Source: Candidatus Micrarchaeia archaeon
GTDB taxonomy: Archaea > Micrarchaeota > Micrarchaeia > Anstonellales > J096
Direction: 5' to 3'
Assembly: GCA_041500865.1 (NCBI GenBank)
Contig: JBGQMY010000023.1
Coordinates: forward strand, 1-15,532
DNA: 15,532 nt
Below, one piece after another: positions 1 to 15,079 of this stretch (position 1 is the stretch's first letter; each line of letters opens with the position of its first letter). The translations under genes were made by a program, and so were the position numbers. The notes beneath the pieces were generated by a model. That model saw nothing but the letters and a program-made list of their open reading frames with translations. It was not told where the DNA came from and searched no databases.

Positions 1-588
1 GTTGTGTTCAAGCAGTAAAGCGCAGGTTTCGGTGTGTCCCCAATGTGCGGCATACATGAGCGCAGTCGTGCCGTCATTGTCATTTGCCTCTATGTCTGCG
101 CCTTTTTCAAGCAGGAAAGCGCATGTTTGGGTGCATCCGTTCCTTGCGGCACATATAAGCGCAGTCATGCCGCCATTGCTCTTTGCCTCGATGCTTGCGT
201 TGTGTTCAAGCAGTAAAGCGCAGGTTTCTATGTACCCTAGCCATGCGGCATGCATGAGCGCAGTCCTGCCGTCGTTGTCCTTTGCCTCGATGCTTGCGCC
301 TTTTTCGAGCAATAAAGCGCAGGTTGGGATGCGTCCGTTGTATGCGGCACGCATGAGCGCGGTCCTGCCGTCATCGTCCTTTGCTTCTATGTCTGCGCCG
401 GCCTTTAGCAGCCTATCGATTCCTTCATCGTCTCCCTGGGGGACGGCGTTCAAGAGCGCCTCGTCCAGCTTTTTGCGCTTGCTTGGAAACATCAGCATCC
501 TTTTCGCCGACTTCTTGCTTAATTCGAATAGGCGCAATGTTTTTTTCCGGAAACGGCCTGGCTCCTTTTCCCTTTGGCGCTGTGCCAT
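1..588 (-). CDS. Ankyrin-repeat protein 1 (3' end runs off the window)
   Basis: Not in the ORF track because its stop is outside the window. Manual translation from ATG 588: MAQRQREKEPGRFRKK...KKLDEALLNAVPQGDDEGIDRLLKAGADIEAK-DDDGRTALMRAAYNGRIPTCALLLEKGASIEAK-DNDGRTALMHAAWLGY...; 33-aa ankyrin repeats with the G-x-TAL-x-x-AA motif. Confidence 0.93.
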   Translation of the reverse strand, partial: MAQRQREKEPGRFRKKTLRLFELSKKSAKRMLMFPSKRKKLDEALLNAVPQGDDEGIDRLLKAGADIEAKDDDGRTALMRAAYNGRIPTCALLLEKGASIEAKDNDGRTALMHAAWLGYIETCALLLEHNASIEAKSNGGMTALICAARNGCTQTCAFLLEKGADIEANDNDGTTALMYAAHWGHTETCALLLEHN

Positions 589-620
589 GACCTTATTATG
601 CGGCGAAGGGAATAAAAATC
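586..620 (-). promoter_or_regulatory. Conserved ankyrin upstream element, copy 1
   Basis: GATTTTTATTCCCTTCGCCGCATAATAAGGTCATG; ends in the ATG of ankyrin 1 and overlaps the TGA stop of ankyrin 2. Confidence 0.8.
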
Positions 621-1179
621 ATCCTGCAAGGCACTCGCCGAAGGATTTCAGGAAATTCTTGACAACATCTGCGCCTACCGATATCTGCAGCTTTTCTATG
701 GACTTGAGGAATGCGGCTGTTTCTTTGTTGCCGTATTTTTTGGCGATTGAGGATGCGGTCTTGTGTTCTTTATCTTCTGCCTTGATGCTTGCGTTGTGTT
801 CAAGCAGTAAAGCGCAGGTTGGGGTGTGCCCCCATATTGCGGCATATATGAGCGCGGTCCTGCCGTCATTGCTCTTTGCCTCGATGCTTGCGCCTTTTTC
901 AACCAACAGCATGCATACGTCAGTATATCCTTCCCGTGCGGCCCGCATGAGCGCAGTCCAGCCGTAGTTGTCCTTTGCCTCGATGCTTGCGCCTTTCTTG
1001 ATGAGCCGCCCAATCTCTTCGTTGTTGTCTTGCTCTGCGGCGCTGATGAGTTCATCATTGAGTTTCTTCTGCGCTTCTTCTGGCAGTTTTGGCTTCTCGC
1101 TTGGCGCCGGCTCCTGTTTGCGTTTTATGATATGCATTTTCTCAAGCGCGCGCCTGAACACGGGCTTCATTTCCTGCAT
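619..1179 (-). CDS. Ankyrin-repeat protein 2 (about 186 aa; N-cap, 2 repeats, C-cap, tail FLKSFGECLAG)
   Basis: ORF 619..1224, with the start reassigned to ATG 1179 (MQEMKPV) at the end of the conserved element; GWTALMRAA and GRTALIYAA repeats. Confidence 0.93.
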   Translation of the reverse strand: MQEMKPVFRRALEKMHIIKRKQEPAPSEKPKLPEEAQKKLNDELISAAEQDNNEEIGRLIKKGASIEAKDNYGWTALMRAAREGYTDVCMLLVEKGASIEAKSNDGRTALIYAAIWGHTPTCALLLEHNASIKAEDKEHKTASSIAKKYGNKETAAFLKSIEKLQISVGADVVKNFLKSFGECLAG

Positions 1180-1211
1180 AGCTATATTGTGCATAAAAGG
1201 AGTTAAAAATG
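1177..1211 (-). promoter_or_regulatory. Conserved ankyrin upstream element, copy 2
   Basis: CATTTTTAACTCCTTTTATGCACAATATAGCTATG. Confidence 0.75.
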
Positions 1212-1286
1212 CTATTGGATGCATTCCTTGAAGCCTGAATAAAACGCGTTTGCAGCTTTAACTGGCTTTTCCGTCTCAAATCCCAT
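1212..1286 (-). pseudogene. Orphan C-terminal fragment of an ankyrin-family gene (MGFETEKPVKAANAFYSGFKECIQ*)
   Basis: 24-codon frame ending in the family tail F-x-S-x-F-x-E-C-I, with its TAG immediately followed by element copy 2. Confidence 0.6.
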
Positions 1287-1320
1287 TCCAGGTTATGCAC
1301 CACATGAAGCCGGAACAGAA

Positions 1321-1941
1321 TCAGTTGGACATTTCCCGTGCCCTTGGCAAAATGGGCGCGAACTTAAGGAAGTCTGCCGTTTCCTTTTTGCTGGTCTGTG
1401 CGGCCCACGCGAATGCGGTATTGCCGGCATGGTCCTTTGCCCCGATGTCAGCGCCTTTTCCGACCAGGAGCGAGCAGACGTCGGTATGCCCGCTGCGTGC
1501 GGCATACATGAGCGGGGTCCTGCCAGCATTGTCCCTTATTTCCATGCCCGCGCCATTTTCAGCCAGGAACCTGCAGATGCCGGCCTTTCCGTTGCACGCG
1601 GCCTCTATGAGCGCGGTGGAGCCGAAGCAGTCCCCTGCATTCACTTCCGCGCCTTTTTTGACCAGCAATACGCAGGTGTCGGCGCTTCCATTCCATGCGG
1701 CATGCATGAGCGGGGTCCAGCCGTCTTTGTCCCTTGCATCGGCATCCGCGCCAGCCTTCAGCAGCCTGTTGATTTCCTCATTGCCGCCTTCCATGGCTGC
1801 CTTAATCAGCCTGGCGTCAAGCTGTTTCTGCCTGCCTGTCAGTATCCTTCCGGCCTTCTCCAGCTTCGGATTGCGGAAGATGGCATCCTTTGCCTTGCGC
1901 ATGCGCATTGCGAATTTTGACTCGGCGAGCCTTTGCGCCAT
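1321..1941 (-). CDS. Ankyrin-repeat protein 3 (about 206 aa; 3 repeats plus caps; stops just before the family tail)
   Basis: GWTPLMHAA, GSTALIEAA, GRTPLMYAA and GNTAFAWAA motifs; start at ATG 1941 (MAQRLAESK) after the element. FCSGFMWCI follows the TGA in frame. Confidence 0.92.
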   Translation of the reverse strand: MAQRLAESKFAMRMRKAKDAIFRNPKLEKAGRILTGRQKQLDARLIKAAMEGGNEEINRLLKAGADADARDKDGWTPLMHAAWNGSADTCVLLVKKGAEVNAGDCFGSTALIEAACNGKAGICRFLAENGAGMEIRDNAGRTPLMYAARSGHTDVCSLLVGKGADIGAKDHAGNTAFAWAAQTSKKETADFLKFAPILPRAREMSN

Positions 1942-1973
1942 GCCCCCATTATGTGGCAAAGGGAATTAAAATG
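1939..1973 (-). promoter_or_regulatory. Conserved ankyrin upstream element, copy 3
   Basis: CATTTTAATTCCCTTTGCCACATAATGGGGGCATG. Confidence 0.78.
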
Positions 1974-2021
1974 CTCGCCCAGGTTGCCCAAGCAGGCCAA
2001 AAACAGACGCACAACACAACC

Positions 2022-2029
2022 TTTTAAAA
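2022..2029 (+). promoter_or_regulatory. Putative TATA box of the coiled-coil gene
   Basis: TTTTAAAA upstream of an AGTGA SD-like site (2074-2078) and ATG 2084. Confidence 0.45.
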
Positions 2030-2083
2030 CCTTTTTCCGGATTAGGATTACGCTGATTGGATTATTCCGCAAAAGTGATTGAC

Positions 2084-2656
2084 ATGGCAGACGAGAAAGG
2101 GGCTCCTGAGCAAAGGCAACCCGCCGTGCCCCAAAAGGGCAGCGTCGAGGAGGAAATTTCAAAGCTCACTGCCAGGAAGAACGAGCTCATAGAAAGGGTC
2201 AAGAGAGTCTCGAAGGGGCTGAAATACAAGACAATAGAGCTCAAGGCGCTTGAGCCGCTGGCCGCGCAGGCCGAAAGGGAAAACCCGTTCATACTCATTA
2301 GAAAGTTAAAGAAGCTGGAATTCAGGCTCTCGACCCAGGCTTCGACGCCGAAAACCGAGAAGCTGATGATGAAGGACATCATCGACCTTGAAAGGAAGAT
2401 AAGGAAGGTCAAGCCCCTTCTCACTGCCTCAAGCAGGATAAGGAGGGTCAGGGAGGACCTCAAGTATTACGAGGGCGAGATGGTAAAGGTGGAGTCTGAG
2501 CTGAAGGATCTGAGGTCAAGGCTGAGGGAGCTCATCAGCAGGAAGAAGGAGGACAAGGCGGCTGAAAGGAAGGGCATCTCCTATGACGAGACTGTCGAGG
2601 TAGCGGACGAATTCGTCTCCATGGAAGACATCGCCGAAATAGAGAAGCACGACTGA
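2084..2656 (+). CDS. Archaeal coiled-coil protein (COG1340-like)
   Basis: K/E/L-rich heptads; the segment KKLEFRLSTQASTPKTEKLMMKDIIDLERKI resembles the conserved archaeal coiled-coil family. ATG 2084 with an SD-like site is preferred over TTG 2057. Confidence 0.8.
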   Translation: MADEKGAPEQRQPAVPQKGSVEEEISKLTARKNELIERVKRVSKGLKYKTIELKALEPLAAQAERENPFILIRKLKKLEFRLSTQASTPKTEKLMMKDIIDLERKIRKVKPLLTASSRIRRVREDLKYYEGEMVKVESELKDLRSRLRELISRKKEDKAAERKGISYDETVEVADEFVSMEDIAEIEKHD

Positions 2657-3682
2657 TTATCCAAGCGCGCCTTCAACGCCGTCAAGCATGCTCATCGGGA
2701 AGTCCATGTCGCCTTTCATCTTTATCCAGTTGCTCAGGCCCGAAAGCTCCAGGCCGTAAAGCATGGCCTTCTTCGCATGGAACGGCACAAGCTCGTTCAG
2801 CGTCTGTATGGCGTCATGCGCGGCTATCTCCCTCATCAGGTGCGATTCCCTTATTCTTTTGTCTATATGGCATTTGCCCTCGAACGCGTCCGCGAACCAC
2901 GGCAAGGCAATTGACATGAACGTTATGCCGCCGCCTGTCGCGCTTTTCGTCAATCCCGCGGCGTCCCCGAACAGGACGGCGCCCTTGTTCTGCATCCTTT
3001 CCCTCATGCTTATCGGGATGACTGCGCCCCTCCACTTCACGCCTTCGCCGCAGTCGCCGAAGAATTTTATGCCTTTCCCGAGAAGCGCCCTGTCAACAGT
3101 CCCGAAGCCTATCTCAGAGACGTTCCTGCGCGGTATTATCCAGCCGAAGAAGCCCTTGAATGCGTCGTTTATGAAGACGCGGACCATGTCCTTTTCCCAT
3201 ATGCTGTCTACGTAGGCATGCATCGTATATGCGTATTTCCTTATGGGCGGGAACCCGAACGCCCTTGCAGTCTCTGACCAGGGCCCGTCCGCGCCTACGG
3301 CGTTTTTCATCTTCAATATGTCCGAGGTGGCCTTCCTTGTCCCGTATTCAACGTCAACGCCTTTCTTTTCCGCGGCTTTCGCGCTTATCTCATTGACCTT
3401 TTCCCTGTCCATCACATATGCCACGTCGCGGTCCCTTTTCACCTCAAGCCACTCGCAGCCCACGAATATCTTTGCGCCCTTTATCCGGTTTTGGACCGCC
3501 TTGCTTACGCTGATTGATTTTGATATGTTCTCCATCCCCCTGCTTGAGATTAATCCCGAACACTCTATTGAATCGGACGGGCTTGCATGCTCCTCATATG
3601 CCTTTACGTCGTGCCCCCTTTCCGCAAGCTCGGCCGCCATCATGGAGCCGGCTATGCTGAAGCCTACGACGTTCGCCTTCAA
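2657..3682 (-). CDS. Geranylgeranyl reductase-family FAD-dependent oxidoreductase
   Basis: N-terminal Rossmann segment VVGFSIAGS, then ECSGLIS, VGADG, GFFGWIIP and GDAAGLTKSATGGGI. The start is probably TTG 3682 (SD GGGTG; TTTAAAA at 3722-3728); ATG 3706 is the alternative. Confidence 0.82.
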   Translation of the reverse strand: MKANVVGFSIAGSMMAAELAERGHDVKAYEEHASPSDSIECSGLISSRGMENISKSISVSKAVQNRIKGAKIFVGCEWLEVKRDRDVAYVMDREKVNEISAKAAEKKGVDVEYGTRKATSDILKMKNAVGADGPWSETARAFGFPPIRKYAYTMHAYVDSIWEKDMVRVFINDAFKGFFGWIIPRRNVSEIGFGTVDRALLGKGIKFFGDCGEGVKWRGAVIPISMRERMQNKGAVLFGDAAGLTKSATGGGITFMSIALPWFADAFEGKCHIDKRIRESHLMREIAAHDAIQTLNELVPFHAKKAMLYGLELSGLSNWIKMKGDMDFPMSMLDGVEGALG

Positions 3683-3732
3683 CCGATAAACACCCTGAAA
3701 TGCCATTTTGGCTCGTTGCCGTTTTAAATCTT

Positions 3733-4860
3733 TCAGTGCCTCGCAAGCTTCCTCTTCCTGTCCTCGAAGATTGGGATATATAACAGCAGGGCAAGGCCCT
3801 CAAACAGCAGGGTTGCCTCCAATGAGAAGCTTACTGCTATCAAATACCCAACCAGCACGCCGCTGACCCTGCTTATGGCGAATATGAACTCCCGCCCCAT
3901 CATGCTGGAAACAAGGTCCTTGCTGTTGTCCACAACAAGCGCGAGCGGCAAAGGGAAGAATATGCGCGAAAAGAAATTGACAAGGCCGTAGCCCAATATG
4001 AACATGGCGATCCCCTGCGCCCAGCTGGTGAAAATCGCGGAAAGCGCGAAGCACGCCACAAGCACGAGCAGCAGCTCCCTGCGCCGTTCCATCCTGTCGG
4101 AAAACCGCGCAGCCACGAATGCCGCAATGACCGAGAATACCGTTGCCAGGGACGTTAAAATGCCGAACTGCAGCGGCGTGCCCGCATAGCGCAGCAAGAT
4201 GACGCTCAGCGTCATCGAAACCATTATCGTTGCGGTAAAGCCTTCCATGAACAGCATGGACTTCAGCCCAGAAATGGACTTTATGCTGTCAATCAATGAA
4301 TATTCATATTTGCGGTTCTCTACAAGGCAGAAGACTATCGGAATGCCTATAATGAAAACAACTATTGAAAGCGCATAAATCGCCGCGAACCCGAACGATT
4401 GCACGAAAAGGCCGGCCAGCGCCGGAACCAAAAGCGAGATGACAGGGCTTACGGAATAATAGAACGCCCCGAGCTGCGCGCTGTTCCCTTTGCTGAATTC
4501 ATAGAACATCGTGTTGAACGGCGCCCAGAACGCGAAGCACGTGAGCCCTGAAAGGAAAAGATAAGCAAAGGCCGCCAGCGGAAGCGGCAAGACAATTAAA
4601 GATAGTACTGAAAGCGCGGAAATGGCCATGCCTGCAACCATGAAATCCCTGGCTGCAAAGCCCCGGAAAAGCGGGATTACAAGCAATGGCGCCAAGTATA
4701 TGAACGCCCCGACCCCAAATATGACAGGCAGGGACATGCCGCCCTGATTGAAATAAACATAAATAATCGAGGATGTTGGCGCCCATGCCACATTCCATAG
4801 GATATAGACCGCGACAAGCCTCTGGAACGGCGTCAATGCGCTTAGCTTTGGGATTTCCAT
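3733..4860 (-). CDS. MFS transporter
   Basis: 375 aa with about 12 hydrophobic helices; MFS loop motif ARFSDRMERRR; GGTGA SD inside the upstream stop codon. Confidence 0.87.
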   Translation of the reverse strand: MEIPKLSALTPFQRLVAVYILWNVAWAPTSSIIYVYFNQGGMSLPVIFGVGAFIYLAPLLVIPLFRGFAARDFMVAGMAISALSVLSLIVLPLPLAAFAYLFLSGLTCFAFWAPFNTMFYEFSKGNSAQLGAFYYSVSPVISLLVPALAGLFVQSFGFAAIYALSIVVFIIGIPIVFCLVENRKYEYSLIDSIKSISGLKSMLFMEGFTATIMVSMTLSVILLRYAGTPLQFGILTSLATVFSVIAAFVAARFSDRMERRRELLLVLVACFALSAIFTSWAQGIAMFILGYGLVNFFSRIFFPLPLALVVDNSKDLVSSMMGREFIFAISRVSGVLVGYLIAVSFSLEATLLFEGLALLLYIPIFEDRKRKLARH

Positions 4861-4864
4861 GCCT

Positions 4865-6697
4865 TCACCTGAAGAACACCTCGACGTATTTTTCCGGGTT
4901 CCTCGTGATTATGAACCTTTCGTCAGGCAAAAGCTTTTTGTAGTTGTTCCACGCGAACCTCTCGTCCATGAAGATTATGGCGGCCTTGTCCGTTTCCTTC
5001 CTTATCGCCCTTCCCGCTGACTGCAACGCCTTGGTCACGGCAGGATAGATGTATCCGTATTCCCATCCCTTGCCGAACTTCCTGTCATAATACCCTATTA
5101 TGGCGTCTATCTCCACGCCCATCTCCTCAAGCGCTATGCCTGCGACGACTACGACCTTTATCTCGTTGTTGGCGAAGTCCACGCCCTCCGCCACTGAGCC
5201 GCCCTGCACCGCCAGCATAAGCCTCTTGCCCTTCTTGAACCCGTGGATAATCTCCGCTATCTCCGCAGGCCCGGAGCTCTCGCCCTGCATGATGTACGGG
5301 ATGCCCTTTATCAGCGGAGCTATCTCGCCCATGACCTTGAATGACGGAAAGAAAACCACCACTCCGCCCGGGCTCCTTCCGTATATTTTTTCAATCGTTG
5401 ACGCGTATTTCACGAACTCCTCGAACACGCGCCTTGTGTATTTTGTCGTCATGCCCTCTGTTATGATCATTATCCTGTTGTCCTTGGCGAACGGCGAGGA
5501 ATACGACTTTTGGATCACCCTTGCCTTGTCCAGCCCGAGCAGGTCCGCGTACATGCCCAGCGGGCTCAAGGTCGCGCTTGCAAGCACCGCTGCCCTGAAC
5601 TTGTTTATGTATCTGCTCAAGGGGCTCGGGTCCAATGACCTGCGGGACAGCGAGAACTGGCCGCCTTCCCTCCTGCTTAGCACATCCACGTGCCCGTCCC
5701 CTTCTGCCATGCCAAGCTTTTCCATGAATGACGCGGTCTTGAGCAGCGCGCTTCTCCCGCCGGTTTTGAGCACGTATTCGTCCCCAATCTGCAGTAGCTT
5801 TTCCATCAAATCGTCGACATTGTAGCTTTCGCCCAGCGCCTCAACGAATTCGTTTGCGCTTGCCTTGACCTCGTTCTCCTTGCCTATCTTCTTGGAGGAC
5901 CAGTCCAGCAGGACGTCTGAAAGGCTGAGCGGCCCGTATCCCAGCTGCTCAAGCTCCTTGTCCGCCCTTTTCAGCATGCCGGTCGTGACAGTCGACGAGA
6001 CGTAGTCCCTCAGCCTCTTGGGCAGGTTGTGCGCCTCGTCTATTATGACGATGCTTCTTGCAGGGTCTTTTTTGGTTTTTGTCAAGAATGCGTCCCGGAC
6101 GGCCGGTATGAACAGATGGTAATAGTCCGCTATGACGACGTTGGCCCCTTTCGCCATCTTCATCATCATCTCGAACGGGCATGCCCCGCTTTCCGAACAA
6201 ACGTCAAACAGCTCGGCATGCTGCGCGTTCTCAAGCGTTGGCTTCAGCCTTGAGAAAAGCGCGTTCGCCTCGTCCGTTTCGGGCCTGCTGTATCCGATTG
6301 CCTTCCTGCAGAACTTGCACAGCTCGTCCTTCCTCATCGCGTTGCATGCCGAATAGAAGGACTCCGCGTCCGTTCCCTTCAGCGCAGGGTGCATGCAAAG
6401 GTGCCTCTTGCCTATCACGTCAACGGCCGAGAAGCCTTTTCCGTGCTTCCTGTCGATTCCTTTAACGACGTCTATCCCTATCCTGTGCTGGGATATCTTC
6501 GGCGTAAGGAAAAAAACCGTTAAGCCTTCCTTTTCAGCGGCAGTAAGCGCGGCTCCCAGCAGCGCATCGGTCTTGCCCAGCCCCGTCGGGGCCTCGGCAA
6601 GCAATATGTTCCCGCTTTCAAAGGCGCCCAATGCGTCCTGCGCCAGCTCGCTCTGGTGCTTCCTCAGCTGGCTGTGGCGGAACAGGATATCCATCAT
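4865..6697 (-). CDS. xpd: XPD/Rad3/DinG-family Fe-S DNA helicase
   Basis: Q motif LRKHQ, Walker A APTGLGKT, four-Cys Fe-S region (LCMH, ACNAMR, LCKF, ACPF), IIDEAHNL, SATL, EGVDF and QSAGRAIR. Start at 6697 via an ATGA overlap with the upstream gene. Confidence 0.92.
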   Translation of the reverse strand: MMDILFRHSQLRKHQSELAQDALGAFESGNILLAEAPTGLGKTDALLGAALTAAEKEGLTVFFLTPKISQHRIGIDVVKGIDRKHGKGFSAVDVIGKRHLCMHPALKGTDAESFYSACNAMRKDELCKFCRKAIGYSRPETDEANALFSRLKPTLENAQHAELFDVCSESGACPFEMMMKMAKGANVVIADYYHLFIPAVRDAFLTKTKKDPARSIVIIDEAHNLPKRLRDYVSSTVTTGMLKRADKELEQLGYGPLSLSDVLLDWSSKKIGKENEVKASANEFVEALGESYNVDDLMEKLLQIGDEYVLKTGGRSALLKTASFMEKLGMAEGDGHVDVLSRREGGQFSLSRRSLDPSPLSRYINKFRAAVLASATLSPLGMYADLLGLDKARVIQKSYSSPFAKDNRIMIITEGMTTKYTRRVFEEFVKYASTIEKIYGRSPGGVVVFFPSFKVMGEIAPLIKGIPYIMQGESSGPAEIAEIIHGFKKGKRLMLAVQGGSVAEGVDFANNEIKVVVVAGIALEEMGVEIDAIIGYYDRKFGKGWEYGYIYPAVTKALQSAGRAIRKETDKAAIIFMDERFAWNNYKKLLPDERFIITRNPEKYVEVFFR

Positions 6698-7191
6698 TCC
6701 GCCTTTTCGGGCCTGGACAGCGGGCATGCCAGGTTGACGGTCATCTCGTCCTTTCCTGCGTCGTAGGACAGGATTTCGGCATACCTGCCCCACTGGATTA
6801 TGCGCCTGAACTGCATTTCCGATTCTTTTGCGAAAAGCTCCTTTTCTATCATGTGCAGGAAATACGCCTTCGGCTTCGGGCCCTCTTTCCTGAGGACTGA
6901 AACGATTTTCCTGAAAACGGGCATCATGCATATCTGCGAGGATATGAGCGCCTTCTTCCCCTCGGGGTTCAGCGTGTAGAGCCTCCTGCCCATGTTCGTT
7001 ATGTTTATGCAGTCCCTTGTTATCATCACAAGCCCTATTATCTTCGCCGCGTCAATGACGGGCAGCAGCTCGTCTATCTCTATGCCCAGGTACTTCTGCA
7101 GGCTTTCAATCCTCATGGAGCCCTCGTTGTTGTACAAGATGTCGACCAGCCCTATTACCTCGGTTATGTTTGCGTACGGAACCCATTGCAT
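6694..7191 (-). CDS. Stand-alone AAA-associated C-terminal domain protein (partner of NitT/TauT-type ABC ATPase)
   Basis: VIGLVDIL...IDELLPVIDAAKIIGL...ITNMGR and IIQWGRYAEILSYD match the domain commonly fused to these ATPases; lies directly downstream of the ATPase. Confidence 0.8.
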   Translation of the reverse strand: MQWVPYANITEVIGLVDILYNNEGSMRIESLQKYLGIEIDELLPVIDAAKIIGLVMITRDCINITNMGRRLYTLNPEGKKALISSQICMMPVFRKIVSVLRKEGPKPKAYFLHMIEKELFAKESEMQFRRIIQWGRYAEILSYDAGKDEMTVNLACPLSRPEKAE

Positions 7192-7197
7192 TTCATT

Positions 7198-7953
7198 TCA
7201 CCTTACCAGCAGTTCGTATATCTTTGACACGTATTCCTCGAACTTCGCGCTCTTCATCAGCCTCGGCCTCGGAAGCGCTATGTTCACTACCTCCTTTATG
7301 TAGCCCGGCTTGCCGTCAAGCACCATTATCTTGTCTGCCATGTAAACGGCCTCCTCTATGCTGTGCGACGTCATCAGTATGCTGTTTGTCGGGAACTCCT
7401 TGTCCTGCCACAATGCCAGCAGCTCGTCCCTCATGGACTGCGCGGTCAGCGGGTCCAAATTCGCGAACGGCTCGTCCATCAGCAGTATCAGCGGCTCAAC
7501 GGACAGCGCCCTCGCTATGCCCACCTTCTGCTTCAACCCCCGTGCAAGCTCGTACGGCTGGCTGCCCTCGTTGCCGTCAAGGCCCATCATCTCAACATAC
7601 TTCCGTATGCGCGCCTTCTTGTCGTCCTTGCTGATGTTCAGGTGGTCAACCGCGAGGTCCATGTTCTCGTACACGCTGAGCCACGGCACAAGCGCGAAGT
7701 CGTGGAAGACCATTGACACGAGGTCGCTTACCTTCGTGGACGCTATGAAGAAGGACAGCTGCCCTTCTGAAACGGTCTCAAGCCCGGCCATCATCCTTAA
7801 CAGCATGGTTTTTCCGCTTCCGCTCGGGCCGACTATCGCGATTATCTCGTTTTCGTGGAGCGTGAAGCTTATGTTCTTGATTATCCACTTCTCCTTTCCG
7901 CTCTCGTAGAACATCTTGCCGACGCTTTTCAGCGAAACCCATTCCTTCCTCAT
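7198..7953 (-). CDS. ABC transporter ATP-binding protein, NitT/TauT family
   Basis: Walker A GPSGSGKT, Walker B LLMDEPF, D-loop NLD and H-loop SHSIEEA; start MRKEWV at 7953 (ATGA overlap with the permease stop). Confidence 0.92.
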   Translation of the reverse strand: MRKEWVSLKSVGKMFYESGKEKWIIKNISFTLHENEIIAIVGPSGSGKTMLLRMMAGLETVSEGQLSFFIASTKVSDLVSMVFHDFALVPWLSVYENMDLAVDHLNISKDDKKARIRKYVEMMGLDGNEGSQPYELARGLKQKVGIARALSVEPLILLMDEPFANLDPLTAQSMRDELLALWQDKEFPTNSILMTSHSIEEAVYMADKIMVLDGKPGYIKEVVNIALPRPRLMKSAKFEEYVSKIYELLVR

Positions 7954-9509
7954 ACGACCGGCCCCCTTCTCCTTATCGCGGCCCTCATCATGGGCCTTGA
8001 TATGGTTATGTGTATCAGCGGTATTATCGTGCATACGGCAAACGCCGAAAGGAACATCATCTTGACGTTCCCGTCCGCAAGCGCGTTCTGCACCATGCTG
8101 CCTATCCCCCATACCTGGAACTTCGTGTTTCCCAATGTCACGTATTCGGCGATTATGGTCGTGTTCCATCCGCTGCCTAGCGCGGCTATAGAGCCTATTA
8201 TCATGAAAGGCATTATAAATGGCAGTATGGCCTTCCTTATGAACCGCGTGTTCTTTATGTCGTACAATGTCTTCAGGTCGTAAACATAGTTAGGCACCGA
8301 CTTGAGCCCCCCGTATATGTTGAAGAAAAGGTACCACTGGATGCCCGTCATCAGGAACAATATGGCGACAATCTCGAAGTTCCCGAAAACCGACACCAGT
8401 ATGAGGATGGCTGCCGGGAATATCGCAGACGCAGGTATTGACGACACGACCTCCGTGTACCTTATGATTCTCTCCTCTATGCCCTTGTTCTTCGTTATCA
8501 GGTAAACGGCAGGCACCACCCAGAGCATGGAAAGCGCGAACGCGACCAGTATCCTTGCCAGCGAGTAGACGAACGCGGACGCCGTCATTGATACGTCGCC
8601 AAGCGTGACGGTCGGCAGTATCAGGTAGCACACGTAAAGGAACAGCGCGAGGATTGCCGCTATGAAGAGCACTATGCCGTATTTTATGCCCTCCTTGGCC
8701 ACTATTATGCCGCTGTTTATCACGGGGCTCCTTGCCGCGACCGCCATGGGCTCTAAAACATGCTCCAAAGCCCACCCCACTACGGACTTTACGGCGCCTG
8801 AAAGGTTTATGCCCGACTTGGGCCTGGCGTCCAGCGTCCTGTCATACACCATTGCCTCCCTCTTCCCCTTCAGGTACCTGGACGTCATGTTCATCAGCGG
8901 CCTCCAGACGATTATGTCCATGAAAATGATGACCCCTGAAACGAGCAAAAGCCCCGTGAGTATGCCGCCCACGTCCCCGTTCTTTGCCGACGTCATTATG
9001 AAATTGCCTATCCCCTTCAGCTCAAAGCTGCTGTGCCCCACCGATATGACCTCGGTCGCTATCAGGAAGTACCATCCGATGGCCCAGGAAACCAATGAGT
9101 TGGAGATGAGCCCCATGGCGATATAGGGAAAATAAATCTTGAACAGCTTGTCGAATTCGCTTACCCTGAATAATTTTCCTATGTCCTTCATGCTTCCTTT
9201 CAACGAGTAGAACCCCTCGTAAACGGAAAATATCATGTTCCACACCATGCTGGTCACGATGAGGAATATTGCGGCTATCTCCACCCCTGCGCCGCCAGGG
9301 AACTTGTCTATGAAAAAGAATATCGCAGGCGGGAAGAAAATCAATATCGGTATGGCCTGGAGTATGTCCAGGATAGGCATGAGTATCCGTTCGATTATAT
9401 GCTCCTTGGCCATGTAATACCCAAGGACCAATGCCAAGACAAGCGATATCATGTATGCTGCCAGCATCCTACCTGTTGACAGCGCAAGGAACAGCAGAAC
9501 GTCAGCCAT
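7950..9509 (-). CDS. ABC transporter permease with two fused TM domains (NitT/TauT family)
   Basis: Duplicated permease halves (ILQAIPIL...GWYFLIATE and VVSSIPAS...GWNTTIIAE). Start MADVLL at 9509, with TTTAAAA at -30 to -24. Confidence 0.9.
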   Translation of the reverse strand: MADVLLFLALSTGRMLAAYMISLVLALVLGYYMAKEHIIERILMPILDILQAIPILIFFPPAIFFFIDKFPGGAGVEIAAIFLIVTSMVWNMIFSVYEGFYSLKGSMKDIGKLFRVSEFDKLFKIYFPYIAMGLISNSLVSWAIGWYFLIATEVISVGHSSFELKGIGNFIMTSAKNGDVGGILTGLLLVSGVIIFMDIIVWRPLMNMTSRYLKGKREAMVYDRTLDARPKSGINLSGAVKSVVGWALEHVLEPMAVAARSPVINSGIIVAKEGIKYGIVLFIAAILALFLYVCYLILPTVTLGDVSMTASAFVYSLARILVAFALSMLWVVPAVYLITKNKGIEERIIRYTEVVSSIPASAIFPAAILILVSVFGNFEIVAILFLMTGIQWYLFFNIYGGLKSVPNYVYDLKTLYDIKNTRFIRKAILPFIMPFMIIGSIAALGSGWNTTIIAEYVTLGNTKFQVWGIGSMVQNALADGNVKMMFLSAFAVCTIIPLIHITISRPMMRAAIRRRGPVV

Positions 9510-9532
9510 CGCCTTACTTACGCCTTGAAGGG

Positions 9533-9539
9533 TTTTAAA
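9533..9539 (-). promoter_or_regulatory. TATA box of the ABC-XPD-MFS operon (leaderless)
   Basis: TTTAAAA at -30 to -24 from ATG 9509. Confidence 0.6.
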
Positions 9540-9550
9540 CACTAGGTTTT

Positions 9551-9584
9551 TTGCCTTGCCCCAGTGATAATCACTGGAAGGCAA
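9551..9584. promoter_or_regulatory. Inverted repeat upstream of the ABC operon TATA box (possible regulator site)
   Basis: TTGCCTT-gcc-CCAGTGAT-a-ATCACTGG-AAGGCAA. Confidence 0.5.
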
Positions 9585-9589
9585 TTATG

Positions 9590-9630
9590 CAATATTCGTG
9601 CGAGATAAGCTTCATCTCTCGCATATATTG
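9590..9630. other. Imperfect hairpin
   Basis: CAATAT-tcg-TGCGAGA-(11 nt)-TCTCGCA-t-ATATTG. Confidence 0.45.
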
Positions 9631-9736
9631 AAAAATTTTGACCTAAAAACAGGCCATAATCCCGCCAAAACCCCAGAATGCATATTCTGGCCTCATTTTT
9701 GACCCAATTGGGGCATTCTTCACCTAAGAAAGAGGG

Positions 9737-9750
9737 AAATCAGGCGGCAA
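9737..9750 (+). repeat. 14-bp direct repeat, left copy (AAATCAGGCGGCAA)
   Basis: Identical to 11599-11612; spans the ankyrin 4 stop codon. Confidence 0.75.
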
Positions 9751-10303
9751 CGCACTCGCGGAATGGTTTCAGGAAACTCCTGACAACATCCGCGCCTATT
9801 AATTCCTGCATTTTTTCCAAGGACCTGAGGAACTGCTCTGCTTCAGCCGAATTATTTACTCCTCTTACAGCCAGCGTCAGCGCAGTCTCGCCGGCATAGT
9901 CCCCGTTTTCAGCTTTTGCACCCATATCCGCGCAGTTTCCGATAAGCAAGGCACAGGTTCTGGTGCGCCCGTTCCTTGCAGCCCGCATCAGCGCAGTCCA
10001 GCCAGCCCATCCCCGTGTTTTTTCAATTTTTGCGTTCACATCCGCGCCCTTTGCAATCAGAAAGGCGCAGGCTTCAGTCTGCCCGTGCTCCGCAGCCCGC
10101 ATCAGCACAGTCTCGCCCCTTTCATTCGTTGCATTCACATCCGCGCCGGCTTCCAGCAGCCTTTCAACCTCTTTGACATTGCCTTGCCTAGCGGCATCAA
10201 TTAGAATATTATTGAACTGCGCCAATTTCTCAACCTTGGCTATCTCTGCCCTGATTGGCAAATTCCGTGCAGGCACATTCTCCTGGAGCTTCTGTTTCTG
10301 CAT
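9740..10303 (-). CDS. Ankyrin-repeat protein 4 (about 187 aa; tail FLKPFRECVAA)
   Basis: GETVLMRAA, GWTALMRAA and GETALTLAV motifs; start MQKQKL at ATG 10303 after the element. Confidence 0.93.
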   Translation of the reverse strand: MQKQKLQENVPARNLPIRAEIAKVEKLAQFNNILIDAARQGNVKEVERLLEAGADVNATNERGETVLMRAAEHGQTEACAFLIAKGADVNAKIEKTRGWAGWTALMRAARNGRTRTCALLIGNCADMGAKAENGDYAGETALTLAVRGVNNSAEAEQFLRSLEKMQELIGADVVRSFLKPFRECVAA

Positions 10304-10335
10304 GCCTTTATTGTGCAGCAAAGGGATTAAAAATC
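10301..10335 (-). promoter_or_regulatory. Conserved ankyrin upstream element, copy 4
   Basis: GATTTTTAATCCCTTTGCTGCACAATAAAGGCATG. Confidence 0.8.
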
Positions 10336-10386
10336 AAGAGTAAAAAGAGTCACCTTTTCTGTCCGTGCCAATCCCTTCCGCAAAGT

Positions 10387-10426
10387 TTTTTAAACTATTG
10401 CCAGTTATATAGCTGCTATGGTAACT
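10387..10426 (+). promoter_or_regulatory. TA promoter with probable autoregulatory operator
   Basis: TTTTTAAA at -31 to -24; imperfect palindrome CAGTTATATAGCTG (10402-10415) and ATAGC-t-GCTAT across the start. Confidence 0.55.
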
Positions 10427-10636
10427 ACGATCCAGGTAAGCGAGGGCCTTGTGGACGCCCTGAAAAAAAGGAAGCAATACGGCAAGGAAAGCTATGAAGA
10501 GGTGATCTGGAACCTGGTGGAAGACGGCATGGAGCTGAACGATGAGGCAAAGAGGGACATCGAGCAGGCAAGGGCCGAGATAAAGGCAGGGAGATTCTAC
10601 ACGCACGAGCAAGTGAAAAAGAGGCTGGGGCTCTGA
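10418..10636 (+). CDS. relB: Type II antitoxin (archaeal RelB-like, N-terminal RHH)
   Basis: 72 aa with TTIQVS...ESYEEVIWNL ribbon-helix-helix and an IKAGRFYTHEQVKKRLGL C-terminus; directly upstream of RelE. Confidence 0.82.
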   Translation: MVTTIQVSEGLVDALKKRKQYGKESYEEVIWNLVEDGMELNDEAKRDIEQARAEIKAGRFYTHEQVKKRLGL

Positions 10637-10885
10637 ATGTACGAGCTGGTCTATTCCCCTGAAGCGCTGAGGCAGCTGGAAAAGCTGGACCGCAATGCGG
10701 CGGAAAGGATAATGGCAGTGCTTGAGCGCCTGAGGATAAGGCCCGAGTCATGCGACATAAAGAAACTTGTGGGAATGCGCGGATACAGGCTCAGGGTCGG
10801 CGATTACCGTGTCATCTTCGATATGGAAAGGGAAAGGCTGGCCATACTGGTCCTTAAGGTCGGGCATAGGAAAAACATTTACTGA
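10637..10885 (+). CDS. relE: Type II toxin, RelE/ParE family
   Basis: MYELVYSPEALRQLEKL...KKLVG..GYRLRVGDYRVIF...LKVGHRKNIY, a canonical RelE pattern. Confidence 0.93.
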   Translation: MYELVYSPEALRQLEKLDRNAAERIMAVLERLRIRPESCDIKKLVGMRGYRLRVGDYRVIFDMERERLAILVLKVGHRKNIY

Positions 10886-10921
10886 TTTTATGCCTGCGCC
10901 TGCCAAAATCCCTGTTCTGCG

Positions 10922-11572
10922 CTATTTCACGCACTCATGAAAATCAGAGAGGAAAGCCTGCATCCCTTCTTTGCCCATTGATTCTTGCAGCTTTTCCATG
11001 GACTTGAGGAATGCGGCCGTTTTCTTGTTGTCGAATTTTGCGGCCCATATGAGCGCAGTCCAGCCGTCATTGTCCTTTGCCTCGATGCTTGCGCCTTTTT
11101 CAAGCAGTAAAGCGCAGGTTTCGGTGTGTTCGTGCAATGCGGCATGCATGAGCGCAGTCCAGCCGTCATTGCTCTTTGCCTCGGTGCTTGCGTTGTGTTC
11201 AAGCAGTAAAGCGCAGGTTTGGGTGTGTCCGTTCCATGCGGCCCACATGAGCGCGGTCCAGCCGTCATTGCTCTTTGCCTCGGTGCTTGCGTTGTGTTCA
11301 AGCAATAAAGCGCAGGTTGGGGTGCGTCCGTTCCGTGCGGCAAACATGAGCGCGGTCCGGCCGTCGTTGTCCTTTGCCTCGATGCTTGCGCCAACTTTTA
11401 ACAATCTTTCCGCTCTTTTTGTTTTGCCGTTTTCAGCGGCATCCAACAGCATGCCATTGAGCTGTTTCTGCTTTTTCTCTGATAATGCCTTCTTTTGGCT
11501 TTCTATTATGCCAGCTTTGAGATTAGCTGGCGCCTTTGCCGGAATGTTATTCTGGAGCTTCCTTTCCTGCAT
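10922..11572 (-). CDS. Ankyrin-repeat protein 5 (about 216 aa; 3 repeats plus caps; tail FLSDFHECVK)
   Basis: GRTALMFAA, GWTALMWAA, GWTALMHAA and GWTALIWAA motifs; start MQERKL at ATG 11572 after the element. Confidence 0.94.
   Translation of the reverse strand: MQERKLQNNIPAKAPANLKAGIIESQKKALSEKKQKQLNGMLLDAAENGKTKRAERLLKVGASIEAKDNDGRTALMFAARNGRTPTCALLLEHNASTEAKSNDGWTALMWAAWNGHTQTCALLLEHNASTEAKSNDGWTALMHAALHEHTETCALLLEKGASIEAKDNDGWTALIWAAKFDNKKTAAFLKSMEKLQESMGKEGMQAFLSDFHECVK
11062..11358. repeat. 99-bp tandem ankyrin modules
   Basis: 11161-11259 and 11260-11358 differ at only 6 of 99 nt by manual count; the same module sequences recur in ankyrin genes 1 and 2. Confidence 0.85.
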
Positions 11573-11603
11573 GGCTTTATTGTGCGCAAAGGGAATAAAA
11601 ATC
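11570..11603 (-). promoter_or_regulatory. Conserved ankyrin upstream element, copy 5
   Basis: GATTTTTATTCCCTTTGC-GCACAATAAAGCCATG. Confidence 0.8.
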
Positions 11604-11612
11604 AGGCGGCAA
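11599..11612 (+). repeat. 14-bp direct repeat, right copy (AAATCAGGCGGCAA)
   Basis: Identical to 9737-9750; overlaps the outer edge of element copy 5. Confidence 0.75.
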
Positions 11613-11838
11613 TGCCAATCCAAACACGATGTTCCTGATTTTCATGGCTGAATTACGTGTCTTTAGGGCTATTTTATGCGAAGTGCCAAATTGGGCAGAA
11701 AAATGCAATCCACGTGCAATGCGAGGCATTCTCCAGACAGGGAAACAATCAGGGTTTGTCTGATTTCGTCATAATTCATGGAAATAATTAAAGGAAATGG
11801 GGCAGGCCATCGATTAAAGTTGCAAAATCCATGAAATA

Positions 11839-11846
11839 TTTATAAA
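11839..11846 (+). promoter_or_regulatory. TATA box of the surface protein gene
   Basis: TTTATAAA at -29 to -22 from ATG 11868. Confidence 0.6.
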
Positions 11847-11867
11847 CAATCCTAAGTTTAGTTATCC

Positions 11868-14732
11868 ATGCGAATCGATTGCTTTATCCTGGCCTTGGTT
11901 TTAGCCATTTCGATTCTGCCGTTTTGCCATGCTGACAACCCAATGGCTTCTGACGGGGCGATGTTCCACAAGTACCTTAGCCACACCGCATGGGACGGGG
12001 TTTCTTACACGCCCGTTCCAGGGATCAACCAAGCAAACTTTTCAATCGGTAGCACTACATGGCAATCCTCCCCTGCGGTGGCCAACGGCTACGTCTATGT
12101 CGGCAACTACGATGGCACCGTCTACCAGCTCAACGCGTCCAACATCAGCATTGCCAATACCTCGCCCCCCTCGAACGTCTCGTTCTCCCAGCCGACTCCC
12201 GCGAGCAACGTCAACGACTTCATCTATCCCATCACATTCAACATGACATCTGCAAGCGCAATGAGCACACCCGGCTACATCGAGATAGACGGGACGAACC
12301 AGACCTGCATCCTGGCCGCAGACAACCTTTCATGCTCCTATGCGCTGCCCTATGATTCGACACTGTTCAACCACACCTACTCGGCCAAGGGCTATGCGGA
12401 CATCAACGGGACGTATTACCTCACGGACGAGACGAGAACCGTGCCTTATTACGGCTGCGGCAACGTGGATGCGAGCGGCACGCTGCTAGGCAACGTCAGC
12501 ATCAACGGCTCCACCTGCTTCACAATAATCGCGGACAACGTTGACTTCAACGGGAACGGATACACTGTCAGCGGAAATTCATCAAACGCCACCTACCTCC
12601 CCGACTTCGGCCTCAATCAGCTAGACCCCCGCTCCGGCGGCATCTATGCGAATGCGGAAAGCCTCGGCGATGGCCATGCCTGGAGAAACGAGACCTTGAG
12701 CAACTTCCGGATCGCGAACTTCATAGATGGCATCTATCTCGACACGATATTCAACTCCACAGTGATTAACGACACCTGCTATAATAACGTCGGTGCCGGC
12801 ATCGACCTCGACGGGGACGGCTACAACATCACATTCGTCAACAACACCGCCTACGGCAATCTCGGTTCCGGCTTCAACCTTCCCGGGGACAGCAGCGCCA
12901 ACAACACCATCGCCGGTAACCTCGCTTACGGCAACTTTTGCGGCTTCAACCTCAACTCCAATTCATTCTACAGCGTCACGGGCAACACCGCCCACGACAA
13001 TTACGCATATGGCTTCTACAGCTACATGGACGATGATATGGTGTTCTCCGGCAACATAGCCTACAACCAGTACGGATTCTGCATCTGTGCGGGCGACGGC
13101 ACCCCGCTCTCCTGCAACACCACCGCCGCCAGCCCTGGTTACGTCCTGCCCGATGACGAGTACTACATGCCTAATGACGGGTTCTACATCGTAGACTACG
13201 ACGACCTCTTCATCAACAACACCGCCTACAACAACACAAACGGTTTCAGCCTTGATGGGGACAACTACAACGTAACCCTCATCGGCAACTTCGCCTACAA
13301 CAATTCCAATGGCTTCTACAGCGACTACAACGGCAACATCAGCTTCACCAACAGCTCCTATAACGACTACAGTGACACCATCAGCTTCATCAACAACTCC
13401 GCCTACGGCAATCAACAGGATGGCTTCGTCCTAGACTCGGAAACCAACGACACGCTCCGGGGCAACTCCGCCTACAACAATTCCGGTTCGGGGTTCTACA
13501 TCTTCGGCGAAACCCTGCCCTCTGTCTCCTGCCCGGATTGCTTCGCCTCATCCAGCACCTACAACAGCCTCACCAACAACTCGGCCTACGGCAACGGCCT
13601 GTACGGCTTCCGCCTCGGCGTCAACTCCAGCAACAACAATCTCACCGGCAACGTCGCCTACAACAACACGGCGTACCAGATTTACCTGAGTGGCGCGTCC
13701 TCAAACCTGATATACGACAACGCCTTCAACGCTTCAAGGAGGCAGGGCGTGGCATATGACGACAATAATACGAATTCCTGGAACACCACAAAGTCCTGCG
13801 CGGCAAAGAACATCGTCGGCGGCAATTGCACCGGCGGGAACTGGTATTCCAATTATGCCGGAATCGATCTCAATAGGGACGGGATAGGCGAAACAGCCAC
13901 GTACGCCATAGGCCCGAATACGGATTATCTCCCCCTCACGAATAAATTGACTGGCGCCGCTTCCGCCCCATCAACCGCGTCCAACAATAACAAGGAACAG
14001 ATGTCCTGGTCCATCTCATTCAACTGCAGCAGCGGAAAGCTCGCTGCAACCAATTCCAATGGCATAGCCGGCATTGATGTCAGGCTGTTTGGCACGCAAA
14101 GCGCATATTCCGGCACGGGGCAATCAGACTCAAGCGGAACCGTTTCATTCATCGTCAGCGAAAGCGGAAGCTACAGGATAGACCAGCCTGCCATGGACGG
14201 GTATCTGCAGTATGCCTCAGATGCATTGGACCTTGCCCTTTGCCCTAACCAGCCGCCTGCCAACAGCACGCAGCCGACAACCGCGGTTACATCGGTGAAT
14301 CAAACCAGTAACAACCAGACAGCCAATCAAAACCAGACCGTAGCGCAAAACGAGACGCCAATTCAAAACCAGACCCCGTCAGGCCCAACCCCAGGGGATG
14401 CATCAGCCGCCATCTCAGCGGCCAATTCGGCCATTGGCCAGGCCATGGCGGAAGGAAAAAACGTAACGGGCGCACAGGACTTGATCAATGGGGCCAATGC
14501 TGCATTTGCCAATGGAAACTTCGCATCGGCGGTGCAACTGGCACAGCAGGCGGGCAGGCTTGCATTGAATGCGACTGCGCCACAGACCAACCAGGCAAGC
14601 AATGCCGACTCAACAGCAGCCAAAGGGCCTAACTGGCCCTGGATTGCGTGGGCATTGGTTCTGGTGGCGATAACAATCGGGGGATATTATTACCTGCTTG
14701 CGAAAAACGGGAAAAGGAAATGGAGCAAATGA
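11868..14732 (+). CDS. Large membrane-anchored surface glycoprotein with right-handed parallel beta-helix (NosD/CASH-like) domain
   Basis: Signal peptide, one PQQ-like blade, many N-x-AY[GN]N..GF beta-helix turns, NosD-type end (GGNWYSNYAGIDLNRDGIGE...DYLPL), Q/N/T-rich linker, Ala-rich helical segment, C-terminal TM helix with basic tail, and many N-x-S/T sequons. Confidence 0.88.
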   Translation: MRIDCFILALVLAISILPFCHADNPMASDGAMFHKYLSHTAWDGVSYTPVPGINQANFSIGSTTWQSSPAVANGYVYVGNYDGTVYQLNASNISIANTSPPSNVSFSQPTPASNVNDFIYPITFNMTSASAMSTPGYIEIDGTNQTCILAADNLSCSYALPYDSTLFNHTYSAKGYADINGTYYLTDETRTVPYYGCGNVDASGTLLGNVSINGSTCFTIIADNVDFNGNGYTVSGNSSNATYLPDFGLNQLDPRSGGIYANAESLGDGHAWRNETLSNFRIANFIDGIYLDTIFNSTVINDTCYNNVGAGIDLDGDGYNITFVNNTAYGNLGSGFNLPGDSSANNTIAGNLAYGNFCGFNLNSNSFYSVTGNTAHDNYAYGFYSYMDDDMVFSGNIAYNQYGFCICAGDGTPLSCNTTAASPGYVLPDDEYYMPNDGFYIVDYDDLFINNTAYNNTNGFSLDGDNYNVTLIGNFAYNNSNGFYSDYNGNISFTNSSYNDYSDTISFINNSAYGNQQDGFVLDSETNDTLRGNSAYNNSGSGFYIFGETLPSVSCPDCFASSSTYNSLTNNSAYGNGLYGFRLGVNSSNNNLTGNVAYNNTAYQIYLSGASSNLIYDNAFNASRRQGVAYDDNNTNSWNTTKSCAAKNIVGGNCTGGNWYSNYAGIDLNRDGIGETATYAIGPNTDYLPLTNKLTGAASAPSTASNNNKEQMSWSISFNCSSGKLAATNSNGIAGIDVRLFGTQSAYSGTGQSDSSGTVSFIVSESGSYRIDQPAMDGYLQYASDALDLALCPNQPPANSTQPTTAVTSVNQTSNNQTANQNQTVAQNETPIQNQTPSGPTPGDASAAISAANSAIGQAMAEGKNVTGAQDLINGANAAFANGNFASAVQLAQQAGRLALNATAPQTNQASNADSTAAKGPNWPWIAWALVLVAITIGGYYYLLAKNGKRKWSK

Positions 14733-15079
14733 AAAATGCCGGTTTTAGGGGCGTGTTCACGATAGACGCGCTGGCTGCCATGCTGCCAATCATCATAATC
14801 GTCTACATAGGGTTTTCGGCCATGCTGGCAAGGGCGGACGCGGCGGAAACGGCATACGGGAACGGAAGGGTCCTGGGCCTTCTCAGTGCGTCGGAAACCA
14901 TGATAAGGGAAAACGCGGTGTGCGAAGGCGGCGCATGCCATTACGGCTGGATAAACAGCACGGAAATAAGCGACAGGTATTCGGCAGGCGAAAGGATGGA
15001 AGGCAAGGACTGCATATACCGCATCGCCGCATACGGGGACGGCAAGGGCATAACGAAGGTTTATGTGTGCCATGATTAG
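14729..15079 (+). CDS. Small pilin-like protein with class III signal peptide
   Basis: MKNAGFRG/VFTIDALAAMLPIIIIVYIGF: basic-Gly cleavage site, acidic residue at +5 and a hydrophobic helix; ATGA overlap with the upstream stop. Confidence 0.68.
   Translation: MKNAGFRGVFTIDALAAMLPIIIIVYIGFSAMLARADAAETAYGNGRVLGLLSASETMIRENAVCEGGACHYGWINSTEISDRYSAGERMEGKDCIYRIAAYGDGKGITKVYVCHD

Follow-up and report, generated by a model that had tools for sequence, protein, structure and literature searches.

A repeated element before ankyrin genes of a Micrarchaeia archaeon: a probable leaderless promoter and edge of exchanged gene cassettes

The five ankyrin genes (g1 to g5) in a stretch of 15,532 nucleotides from a Candidatus Micrarchaeia archaeon (assembly GCA_041500865.1, contig JBGQMY010000023.1, positions 1..15,532 of the forward strand; hereafter the window) are each preceded by a copy of one short element. 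We suggest that this element is probably both the core promoter of leaderless transcripts and a 5' crossover zone, through which whole ankyrin cassettes are exchanged by short-homology recombination. The promoter function alone would be ordinary. If both functions hold, new expressible binder genes can arise without a transposase, and the element is a sequence tag with which candidate host-interaction genes of uncultured archaea could be found. Genomes of DPANN archaea are regarded as minimal, but the present tiny one (G000, 1.04 Mb) devotes 7% of its length to ankyrin genes (123 genes at 79 loci, 74.8 kb in total), and both the sites and the identities of these genes change between close relatives. 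New in this analysis are the cassette edges, the swaps, a dyad across the start codon, a cysteine tail and the diversification of the binding face.

G000 was compared with two congeners, G001 and G002, with G008 from another genus of the same family, and with a relative closer than G002 (L075-L080), whose host genes are 84-93% identical to those of G000. The genomes compared are 77-92% complete; G002 was covered over 833 kb of about 0.9 Mb, while G001 and G008 were sampled at ankyrin-rich stretches only. Genes were called with a dicodon script that prefers starts preceded by a TATA box, so the counts of leaderless genes are somewhat self-selecting. Iterating a matrix of the element drifted to the generic archaeal promoter; element counts are therefore taken from an anchored analysis of 93 ankyrin promoters and 348 non-ankyrin leaderless promoters of G000.

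The element as a leaderless promoter

All five copies lie on the minus strand and end at the ATG of an open reading frame that Pfam confirms as ankyrin, in agreement with the first-pass annotation of this DNA. Including the first four codons they occupy 577..620 (copy 1, with a TATA-like TTTTAT, CCTT, CATAAT and ATG), 1168..1211, 1930..1973, 10292..10335 and 11561..11603 (copy 5, a 34-nt form that is one base shorter). The first bases of copy 1 overlap the TGA stop of g2. Contigs from public runs cover all five copies without differences: the copy of g1 is found in run X3, that of g4 in X1 and X2 and the 34-nt copy of g5 in X2 and X3, and those of g2 and g3 are covered only in X1, which may be the source run, among the listed pieces. 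Other contigs have an extra base at 11585 and are probably paralogs.

The columns described as invariant (.ATTTT.A...CCTT.....CA.AAT...G..) are so in the five copies. However, CCTT, CAYAAT and the G at -3 do not hold for the whole family, where they occur in 44/93, 40/93 and (near -3) 44-52% of the ankyrin promoters. Nor are they confined to it: other promoters had been said to lack CCTT and CAYAAT, but CCTT is found in 40 and CAYAA in 37 of the 348 non-ankyrin leaderless promoters, and the permease promoter in the window itself contains CCCTT. A matrix built from the five copies gives 88 matches in G000 at 18 bits or more, 76 of which precede an ATG, against 2, 1 and 3 matches in three shuffles. 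Of 151 genomes of the order, 3 contain the exact pattern: G000 has 22 copies, G002 has 6 and an unrelated genome has 1; a looser pattern has 9 copies in the congener G001. The named records with the strict form of the pattern are Candidatus Micrarchaeia.

A TATA-like box lies about 29 nt before the ATG in 93/123 ankyrin genes and 348/973 other genes, and an unbiased histogram of TATA distances also peaks at -29. The start of TTWWAW is at exactly -29 in 65/93 of the ankyrin genes and in 164/348 of the other leaderless genes, and it is between -28 and -30 in 88 of the 93 ankyrin genes. This box is followed by a T-run at about -19 and an A-rich box at -12 to -7, with A near -11 in 88% and at -9/-8 in 80% of the ankyrin promoters and C or T at -10. 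Both peaks, of T (58%) and of A (59/54%), recur in weaker form in the ordinary leaderless promoters, and in 171 orthologous ordinary promoters the A-peak positions are conserved at 74/68%, compared with 49% at 4-fold sites. A Shine-Dalgarno-like motif is found in a single one of the 93 ankyrin promoters, compared with 278/637 genes without a TATA box. The part after the TATA box separates ankyrin from other promoters with an area under the curve of 0.91, a score of at least 5 being reached by 73/93 and 33/348, respectively; TTTGCCGCA between the two boxes occurs in 24/93 ankyrin promoters and 1/348 others. Among the tRNA promoters of G002, 9/30 also score at least 5, and one tRNA-Arg gene of G002 has an element-type box as its TATA, directly after an ankyrin stop.

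The promoter reading is thus supported by the geometry, the near absence of Shine-Dalgarno motifs and the recurrence of the same features in ordinary and tRNA promoters. As these features are weaker but present there, the element is probably a core promoter and not a special switch, i.e., likely a sharpened form of the ordinary promoter of leaderless transcripts. It shares with known archaeal leaderless core promoters the distance of the TATA-like box to the ATG, the A-rich box at -11 to -8 and the lack of a Shine-Dalgarno motif (PMC2151090, PMC4983044); in haloarchaea the TATA box is at -27/-28 and a WW at -10/-11 (PMC2151090). It differs from them in having more information between the boxes, no clear TFB recognition element (BRE), conservation into codons 2-4 and homogenisation over the 79 loci.

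Some promoters of non-ankyrin genes resemble the element closely. The 25 such genes scoring at least 8 are for the most part poorly conserved (3/25 vs 149/323, p=0.0007) and their N-termini are more basic. A set of 22 mostly top-scoring non-ankyrin proteins includes a kinase, two methyltransferases, an mTERF-like protein, a cupin, HisG and a presenilin-like protease, while 15 are without a Pfam match. In L124, L132 and L123 (a methyltransferase, a double cupin and an uncharacterised protein) the element is combined with an ankyrin-like basic N-terminal leader, which suggests capture of a 5' module. The leader similarity is weak (E 0.003-0.13), with lysine-rich proteins scoring equally, and a hidden Markov model of the leader mainly matched lysine-rich proteins.

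Cassette edges between relatives

Comparison with relatives indicates that the element likely has a role as a cassette edge, at which genes are swapped between sites. We classified 57 ankyrin-bearing intervals of G000 by their state in G002. In 24 of them G002 is colinear but has an empty interval, in 11 both genomes have ankyrin genes, and in 4 only other genes are present; another 2 are empty without colinearity, and the remaining 16 are breaks, of which 10 coincide with contig edges. Synteny is broken more often at ankyrin intervals than elsewhere (6/47 vs 16/546, p=0.005). Where both genomes have ankyrin genes, even the best pair reaches only 33-51% identity at 10 of the 11 loci, the genome median being 78%, while the first promoter is often conserved at the locus.

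The closer relative (L075-L080) resolves the edges better. All four resolvable single-cassette differences have their edges in, or no more than about 6 nt from, the element or its first codons. They consist of a 498-bp unit between two elements, a 507-bp unit whose edge lies about 5 nt before the TATA box and which has left a stop relic, a 60-nt palindromic module in place of a cassette with the same edges, and an additional unit, about 640 bp long, that lies between element and ATG. In three further comparisons a whole gene is replaced: the host homology is lost close to the element and picks up again at either the cysteine tail or the following ATG. Patch changes are found inside the element between orthologs that are 89% identical, and patchwork variants exist. 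On contig C6 of G002, a host promoter is split 17 nt after the TATA start by an extra ankyrin cassette.

The same edges are visible within the genome. Among 23 near-identical paralog tracts, 14 begin at -2..0 of the TATA box, and most end 38-46 nt further on; typically such a tract spans the sequence from the TATA box to codon 4. A TATA-like box follows within 10 nt of the stop in 24/96 ankyrin genes with the cysteine tail, compared with 29/953 other genes (17/33 vs 27/799 in G002), and about 10 of these boxes precede unrelated genes or tRNAs. Of the 93 promoters, 13 adjoin an ankyrin stop and 11 some other stop; a relic tail adjoins a further 11 and a palindromic module 7. Relics also adjoin elements in the window: the 3' tail of a lost ankyrin gene, ...FYSGFKECIQ-stop, lies next to element 2 (1212..1259, minus strand), and 14 nt of an ankyrin stop region precede element 5 (11602..11615, minus strand) and open a 259-nt tract of g5 that matches a tandem junction of contig C13 at 91.5% identity. 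At element copy 4, contigs of run X3 diverge from the window at 10336, into ankyrin-tail-like sequence.

The suggestion that the element is a recombination site delimiting cassettes is supported in one sense, as a preferred crossover zone, because cassette edges between relatives fall within it. As a site for a site-specific recombinase it is unsupported, because the crossovers lie at several offsets (about -5, 0, +17 and near the ATG) and an integrase, an attC core or a fold was not found. The varied positions together with the lack of a detected integrase favour short-homology recombination. In the mechanism we propose, TBP and TFB would initiate at the ATG, and crossovers at the 5' element and at the 3' FxxxFxxC-stop tail or the next TATA box would swap cassettes. 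RadA-type recombination, gene conversion or microhomology repair might do the exchange; selection would keep only promoter-to-stop units, repeated conversion would sharpen the promoter into a family signature, and the products would be a diversifying set of protein binders. In Sulfolobus islandicus, gene replacement needs no more than 35-40 bp of homology (PMC6249222), and Haloferax is known to carry out microhomology repair (PMC12281630).

Several observations weigh against this proposal. On the promoter side, the A-rich BRE of ordinary promoters is not seen in ankyrin promoters (A 44-49% vs 22-30%), the tRNA promoters of G000 score no higher than ordinary genes (p=0.39), and the transcription start at the ATG is a prediction from sequence. 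Against G002, left edges range from -216 to +83, with only 5/24 within -7..+1 of the TATA box, and neither a common target site nor a duplication was found at the cassette edges. The synteny breaks may include misassembly at repeats, and fast evolution, instead of swapping, may account for part of the low identity at shared loci. The three whole-gene replacements in L075-L080 were unresolvable, each single case fits a deletion as well as an insertion, and selection for intact promoter-to-stop units could alone place the edges at the element. Finally, in runs X1-X5 and X8, where contigs were the sole data, none of the conspecific contig joints was a clean skip of one cassette; the joints are mostly short-sided and explained by paralogs.

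Other repeats were also noted. Modular palindromic repeats (A/T-run hairpins, GGGAACCTTGGTTCCC) form a large family in the intergenic regions of G000 and are often located right behind tRNAs, with examples at C3:65820-66090, C9:39005-40080, C29:1423-1556 and C4:29215-29295. Some of them end directly at the TATA box of the element, and one stands in place of a cassette, with the edges unchanged; a cognate transposase for these repeats was not found. At C1:31608-35753, a 4-kb insertion lies between two perfect copies of a stretch of about 44 nt that covers the start of the host gene.

Recombination enzymes, known systems and alternative explanations

Searches for a dedicated enzyme were negative in the incomplete genomes at hand. 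PF00589 was found neither in G000 (0/1) nor in the relatives G001, G002, G003, G005 and G008 (0/5), in contrast to 14/14 controls; thus no Xer-like tyrosine recombinase was detected in six genomes of the family. In G000, G001, G002 and G008, PF00239 and PF02371 were likewise without a match. Searches for IS200/IS605, REP-RAYT, IS110 and serine recombinases revealed no transposase common to the element-bearing genomes: a Y1 transposase is present only as a fragment in G000, and DDE_Tnp_1 only in G001. TnpB occurs in G000 and G002, but the two proteins are 44% identical and lie at different loci, so that it was rejected as a common mobile-unit enzyme in favour of unrelated insertions.

Among known systems, the element likely resembles in function the upstream homology of vmp-like gene conversion in Borrelia hermsii, but it does not match integrons, diversity-generating retroelements (DGRs) or single expression sites. 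The vmp genes form a large set of paralogs, and their exchange takes place between a short 5' homology and a 3' homology at which crossovers are predicted (PMC6011951); short homologies on both sides are also observed at the exchange edges here. However, vmp has a single expression site and a silent archive, whereas the 93 TATA-bearing ankyrin genes each have their own box; in addition, the genes are dispersed among housekeeping genes and no real-time switching was seen in the contig data. Integron cassettes and clusters of attC sites lacking integrases (CALINs), also known in archaea, are similar in being tandem single-gene units with a short repeated element that are gained and lost whole (10.1101/2022.02.06.479319). 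They differ from the present cassettes, which have no detected integrase, attC cores or hairpin, carry a promoter-like box in each unit and show varying crossovers. Terminal reassortment of bacterial effectors likewise places a 5' module before unrelated cargo (PMC5675462), here a methyltransferase and a cupin, but no secretion system or translocation signal was identified in our case.

The element could also be a plain promoter that is merely carried along in ordinary duplications, the edges coinciding through the purging of copies that lose it. We consider this unlikely, though not negligibly so. It would agree with the modest paralog identity after the TATA box (0.51, vs 0.42 at 4-fold sites and 0.27 upstream), with an element similarity that tracks gene similarity weakly but significantly, with the scattered edges against G002, and with G008, another genus, where ankyrin stops abut a different promoter of its own. 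Exchange inside the element is indicated instead by the split and hybrid promoters, by the stops that abut the TATA boxes of about 10 unrelated genes or tRNAs, by the patch changes between closely similar orthologs, and by nine ortholog pairs in which the element is no more conserved than synonymous sites (0.80 vs 0.78). The claim that the element is better conserved than the adjacent coding DNA survives in a modest form only: among the 10 pairs in the window its identity is 0.74 compared with 0.61 at synonymous sites, and 4-fold sites are higher in 3/10. The two outcomes named in advance as arguing against a special element, a generic promoter and conservation no higher than at synonymous sites, were therefore each found in part. 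An operator function, compatible with the promoter and crossover roles, is another rather doubtful possibility. Here a dimeric regulator would bind a dyad and co-regulate the ankyrin genes with other fast-evolving genes, and the poor conservation of the high-scoring non-ankyrin genes would fit. Element and codons 2-4 do form an imperfect dyad, CCTTTGCCGCA-11 nt-TGCAGGAAAGG (11-11-11, arms 22 bp apart), which at copy 3 pairs at 9/11. At least 7/11 pairs are found in 34/93 ankyrin promoters but in only 7/348 others, with one register peak (0.45 vs 0.19-0.33), and the spacing of 11 has 24 copies in the genome while any other spacing has at most 2. However, covariation between the arms is not significant (p=0.058 in G000, 0.21 in G002), genes starting with MA or ME keep the left arm but not the right, and CAYAA is present in only 7/27 G001 promoters. 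Given the weak covariation, one ancestral accident is possible, and a single chance dyad in an ancestor gives the same counts. A basal or sigma-like factor dedicated to the element is not apparent either: a sigma-70 scan found no site at the elements, an extra TBP or TFB was discarded as the genome has one of each, and a sigma-like gene was discarded because Sigma70_r2, present in G000, is found in 0/18 other family members. The idea of a family-specific regulon site is accordingly weak: the element amounts to a generic promoter in sharpened form, there is just one copy each of TBP and TFB, and the element-bearing congeners were not found to have the sigma-like gene. Sigma-70 genes have been noted in DPANN (PMC8204110). 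The single TFB has an N-terminal extension of about 130 residues, lysine-rich and histone-H1-like (G000 C15:22149-23468, G002 C20:11053-12363), while in most relatives its open frame has 300-335 residues.

An integron-like system with circular cassettes and a dedicated recombinase that went unrecognised or unassembled appears improbable to us. The promoter-to-stop units of about 0.45-1 kb, the indels bounded by direct repeats, the palindromic 60-nt replacement and the dyad are as such a system would have them, and the genomes are incomplete. On the other hand, its recombinase families gave no match and the crossovers are at varied offsets. The cores of attC are defined as GTTRRRY and RYYYAAC, and both are at background, with 2/93 vs 9/348 and 5/93 vs 22/348, respectively. 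The element does not form a stable single-strand hairpin (mean folding z 0.03 for both strands; for the top strand, 9/93 fall below -2), and an element search of viral contigs gave 0 matches. It is more improbable still, and in our view hardly credible, that the ankyrin genes spread as reverse-transcribed copies made by a DGR or a group II intron enzyme. Two reverse transcriptases exist in G000 and one in G002, but none was found in G001 or in the ankyrin-rich G008, and a leaderless mRNA lacks the promoter, yet the exchanged unit starts at the TATA box. The DGR at C3:18403-20715 looks complete, with reverse transcriptase, template repeat and adjacent target gene; its action on ankyrins was rejected because the template matches only this adjacent, non-ankyrin gene. 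The other enzyme, of group II intron type, is on C36 (2413 bp), a contig with repeated ends that is possibly an intron circle or a collapsed repeat.

The ankyrin proteins and the other features of the window

Ank_2 has 93-95 matches in both congeners and 73 in one other genus of the family, compared with 0-19 in most other relatives. Symbionts of eukaryotes are known to have such ankyrin expansions. In the literature searches, no title or abstract reported one for Micrarchaeota, although supplements of DPANN surveys could list such families. Ciliate-associated DPANN have been reported (PMC11127453). In G008 (L096-L106) an independent ankyrin expansion has a different C-terminal motif and its own repeated promoter directly after stop codons; since the stops abut a different promoter there, the architecture recurs while the sequence does not. 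Some arrays of G000 (C1:52260-54726, C25:4700-7793) are without internal elements, and their stop-start junctions have a GGTG-type ribosome site.

In a structural model, g5 has a disordered basic N-terminus of 30 residues, a repeat stack like that of designed ankyrin repeat proteins (DARPins; TM about 0.95 over the target) and a C-terminal helix of 33 residues. An Atlas search returned generic ankyrins, and the ankyrin proteins are mostly without signal peptides. In 247 close repeat pairs, which are not independent, the share of amino-acid changes is as high as 49-79% at turn and first-helix positions, the predicted binding positions that correspond to the binding residues of DARPins, while changes in framework codons are mostly silent.

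The motif FxxxFxxC followed by 2-5 residues and the stop is present in 96/123 ankyrin proteins of G000, for instance at 619-651 and 9740-9772 of the window. In 59/123 the cysteine within it is four residues from the C-terminal end, compared with 8/973 other proteins. Codon choice in the tail matches genome usage, so the tail looks like a protein-level constraint. The tail also occurs on a non-ankyrin helical protein at C13:15917. A canonical CaaX box has an aliphatic residue at a2, whereas a2 is A, G or S in 51/59 of the tails. A broader tolerance at a2 is reported for prenylation substrates (PMC3188499). The prenyltransferase family PF00432 had no match in 5 genomes nor in any control, which makes this search uninformative. 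DARPins and Legionella AnkB-type effectors resemble these proteins in a consensus-like stack, variable binding positions and a cysteine in the C-terminal region (PMC2916131), and differ in that the proteins here are natural and archaeal, with a disordered basic N-terminus, a long C-terminal helix and a tail that is not canonical CaaX at a2.

It can be speculated, as a tentative extension, that this is a recombinase-free cassette system of a DPANN archaeon, in which over a hundred natural DARPin genes, by means of a 5' element that brings its own promoter and a conserved 3' tail, are copied, swapped and seeded at further sites, and in which the 5' module of promoter and basic leader captures a kinase, methyltransferases and a cupin. 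The products might then be co-expressed and rapidly diversifying host-directed effectors, possibly for a eukaryotic host.

In the window, Rfam and tRNA scans gave no matches. The five ankyrin genes are all on the minus strand. At the left end, g1 (1..588) is truncated by the contig end, and its array likely continues into contig C11, ahead of RNA polymerase genes. It is followed by g2 (619..1179, ending in FLKSFGECLAG-stop) and g3 (1321..1941), which has no cysteine tail; on the right are g4 (9740..10303, ending in FLKPFRECVAA-stop) and g5 (10922..11572, ending in FLSDFHECVK). All five were identified by Pfam. Between the two groups lies a conserved host block (2057..9509) that is 80% identical in G002. 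It is flanked by at least three ankyrin genes plus relics in G000, by one in G001, at the position of g3, and by none on either side in G002. At the left flank, a coaD-like fusion gene (G002 C13:11909-13583) takes the position in G002 that ankyrin genes have in G000 and G001; a close counterpart of it was not found in G000 (best match 35%). An antitoxin and a RelE/ParE-type toxin (10418..10885, plus strand, Pfam) are located between g4 and g5. Beyond g5, 11868-14732 encodes a 954-residue secreted-type beta-helix (NosD-like) protein with a C-terminal membrane anchor, within a stretch that is missing at this site in G002.

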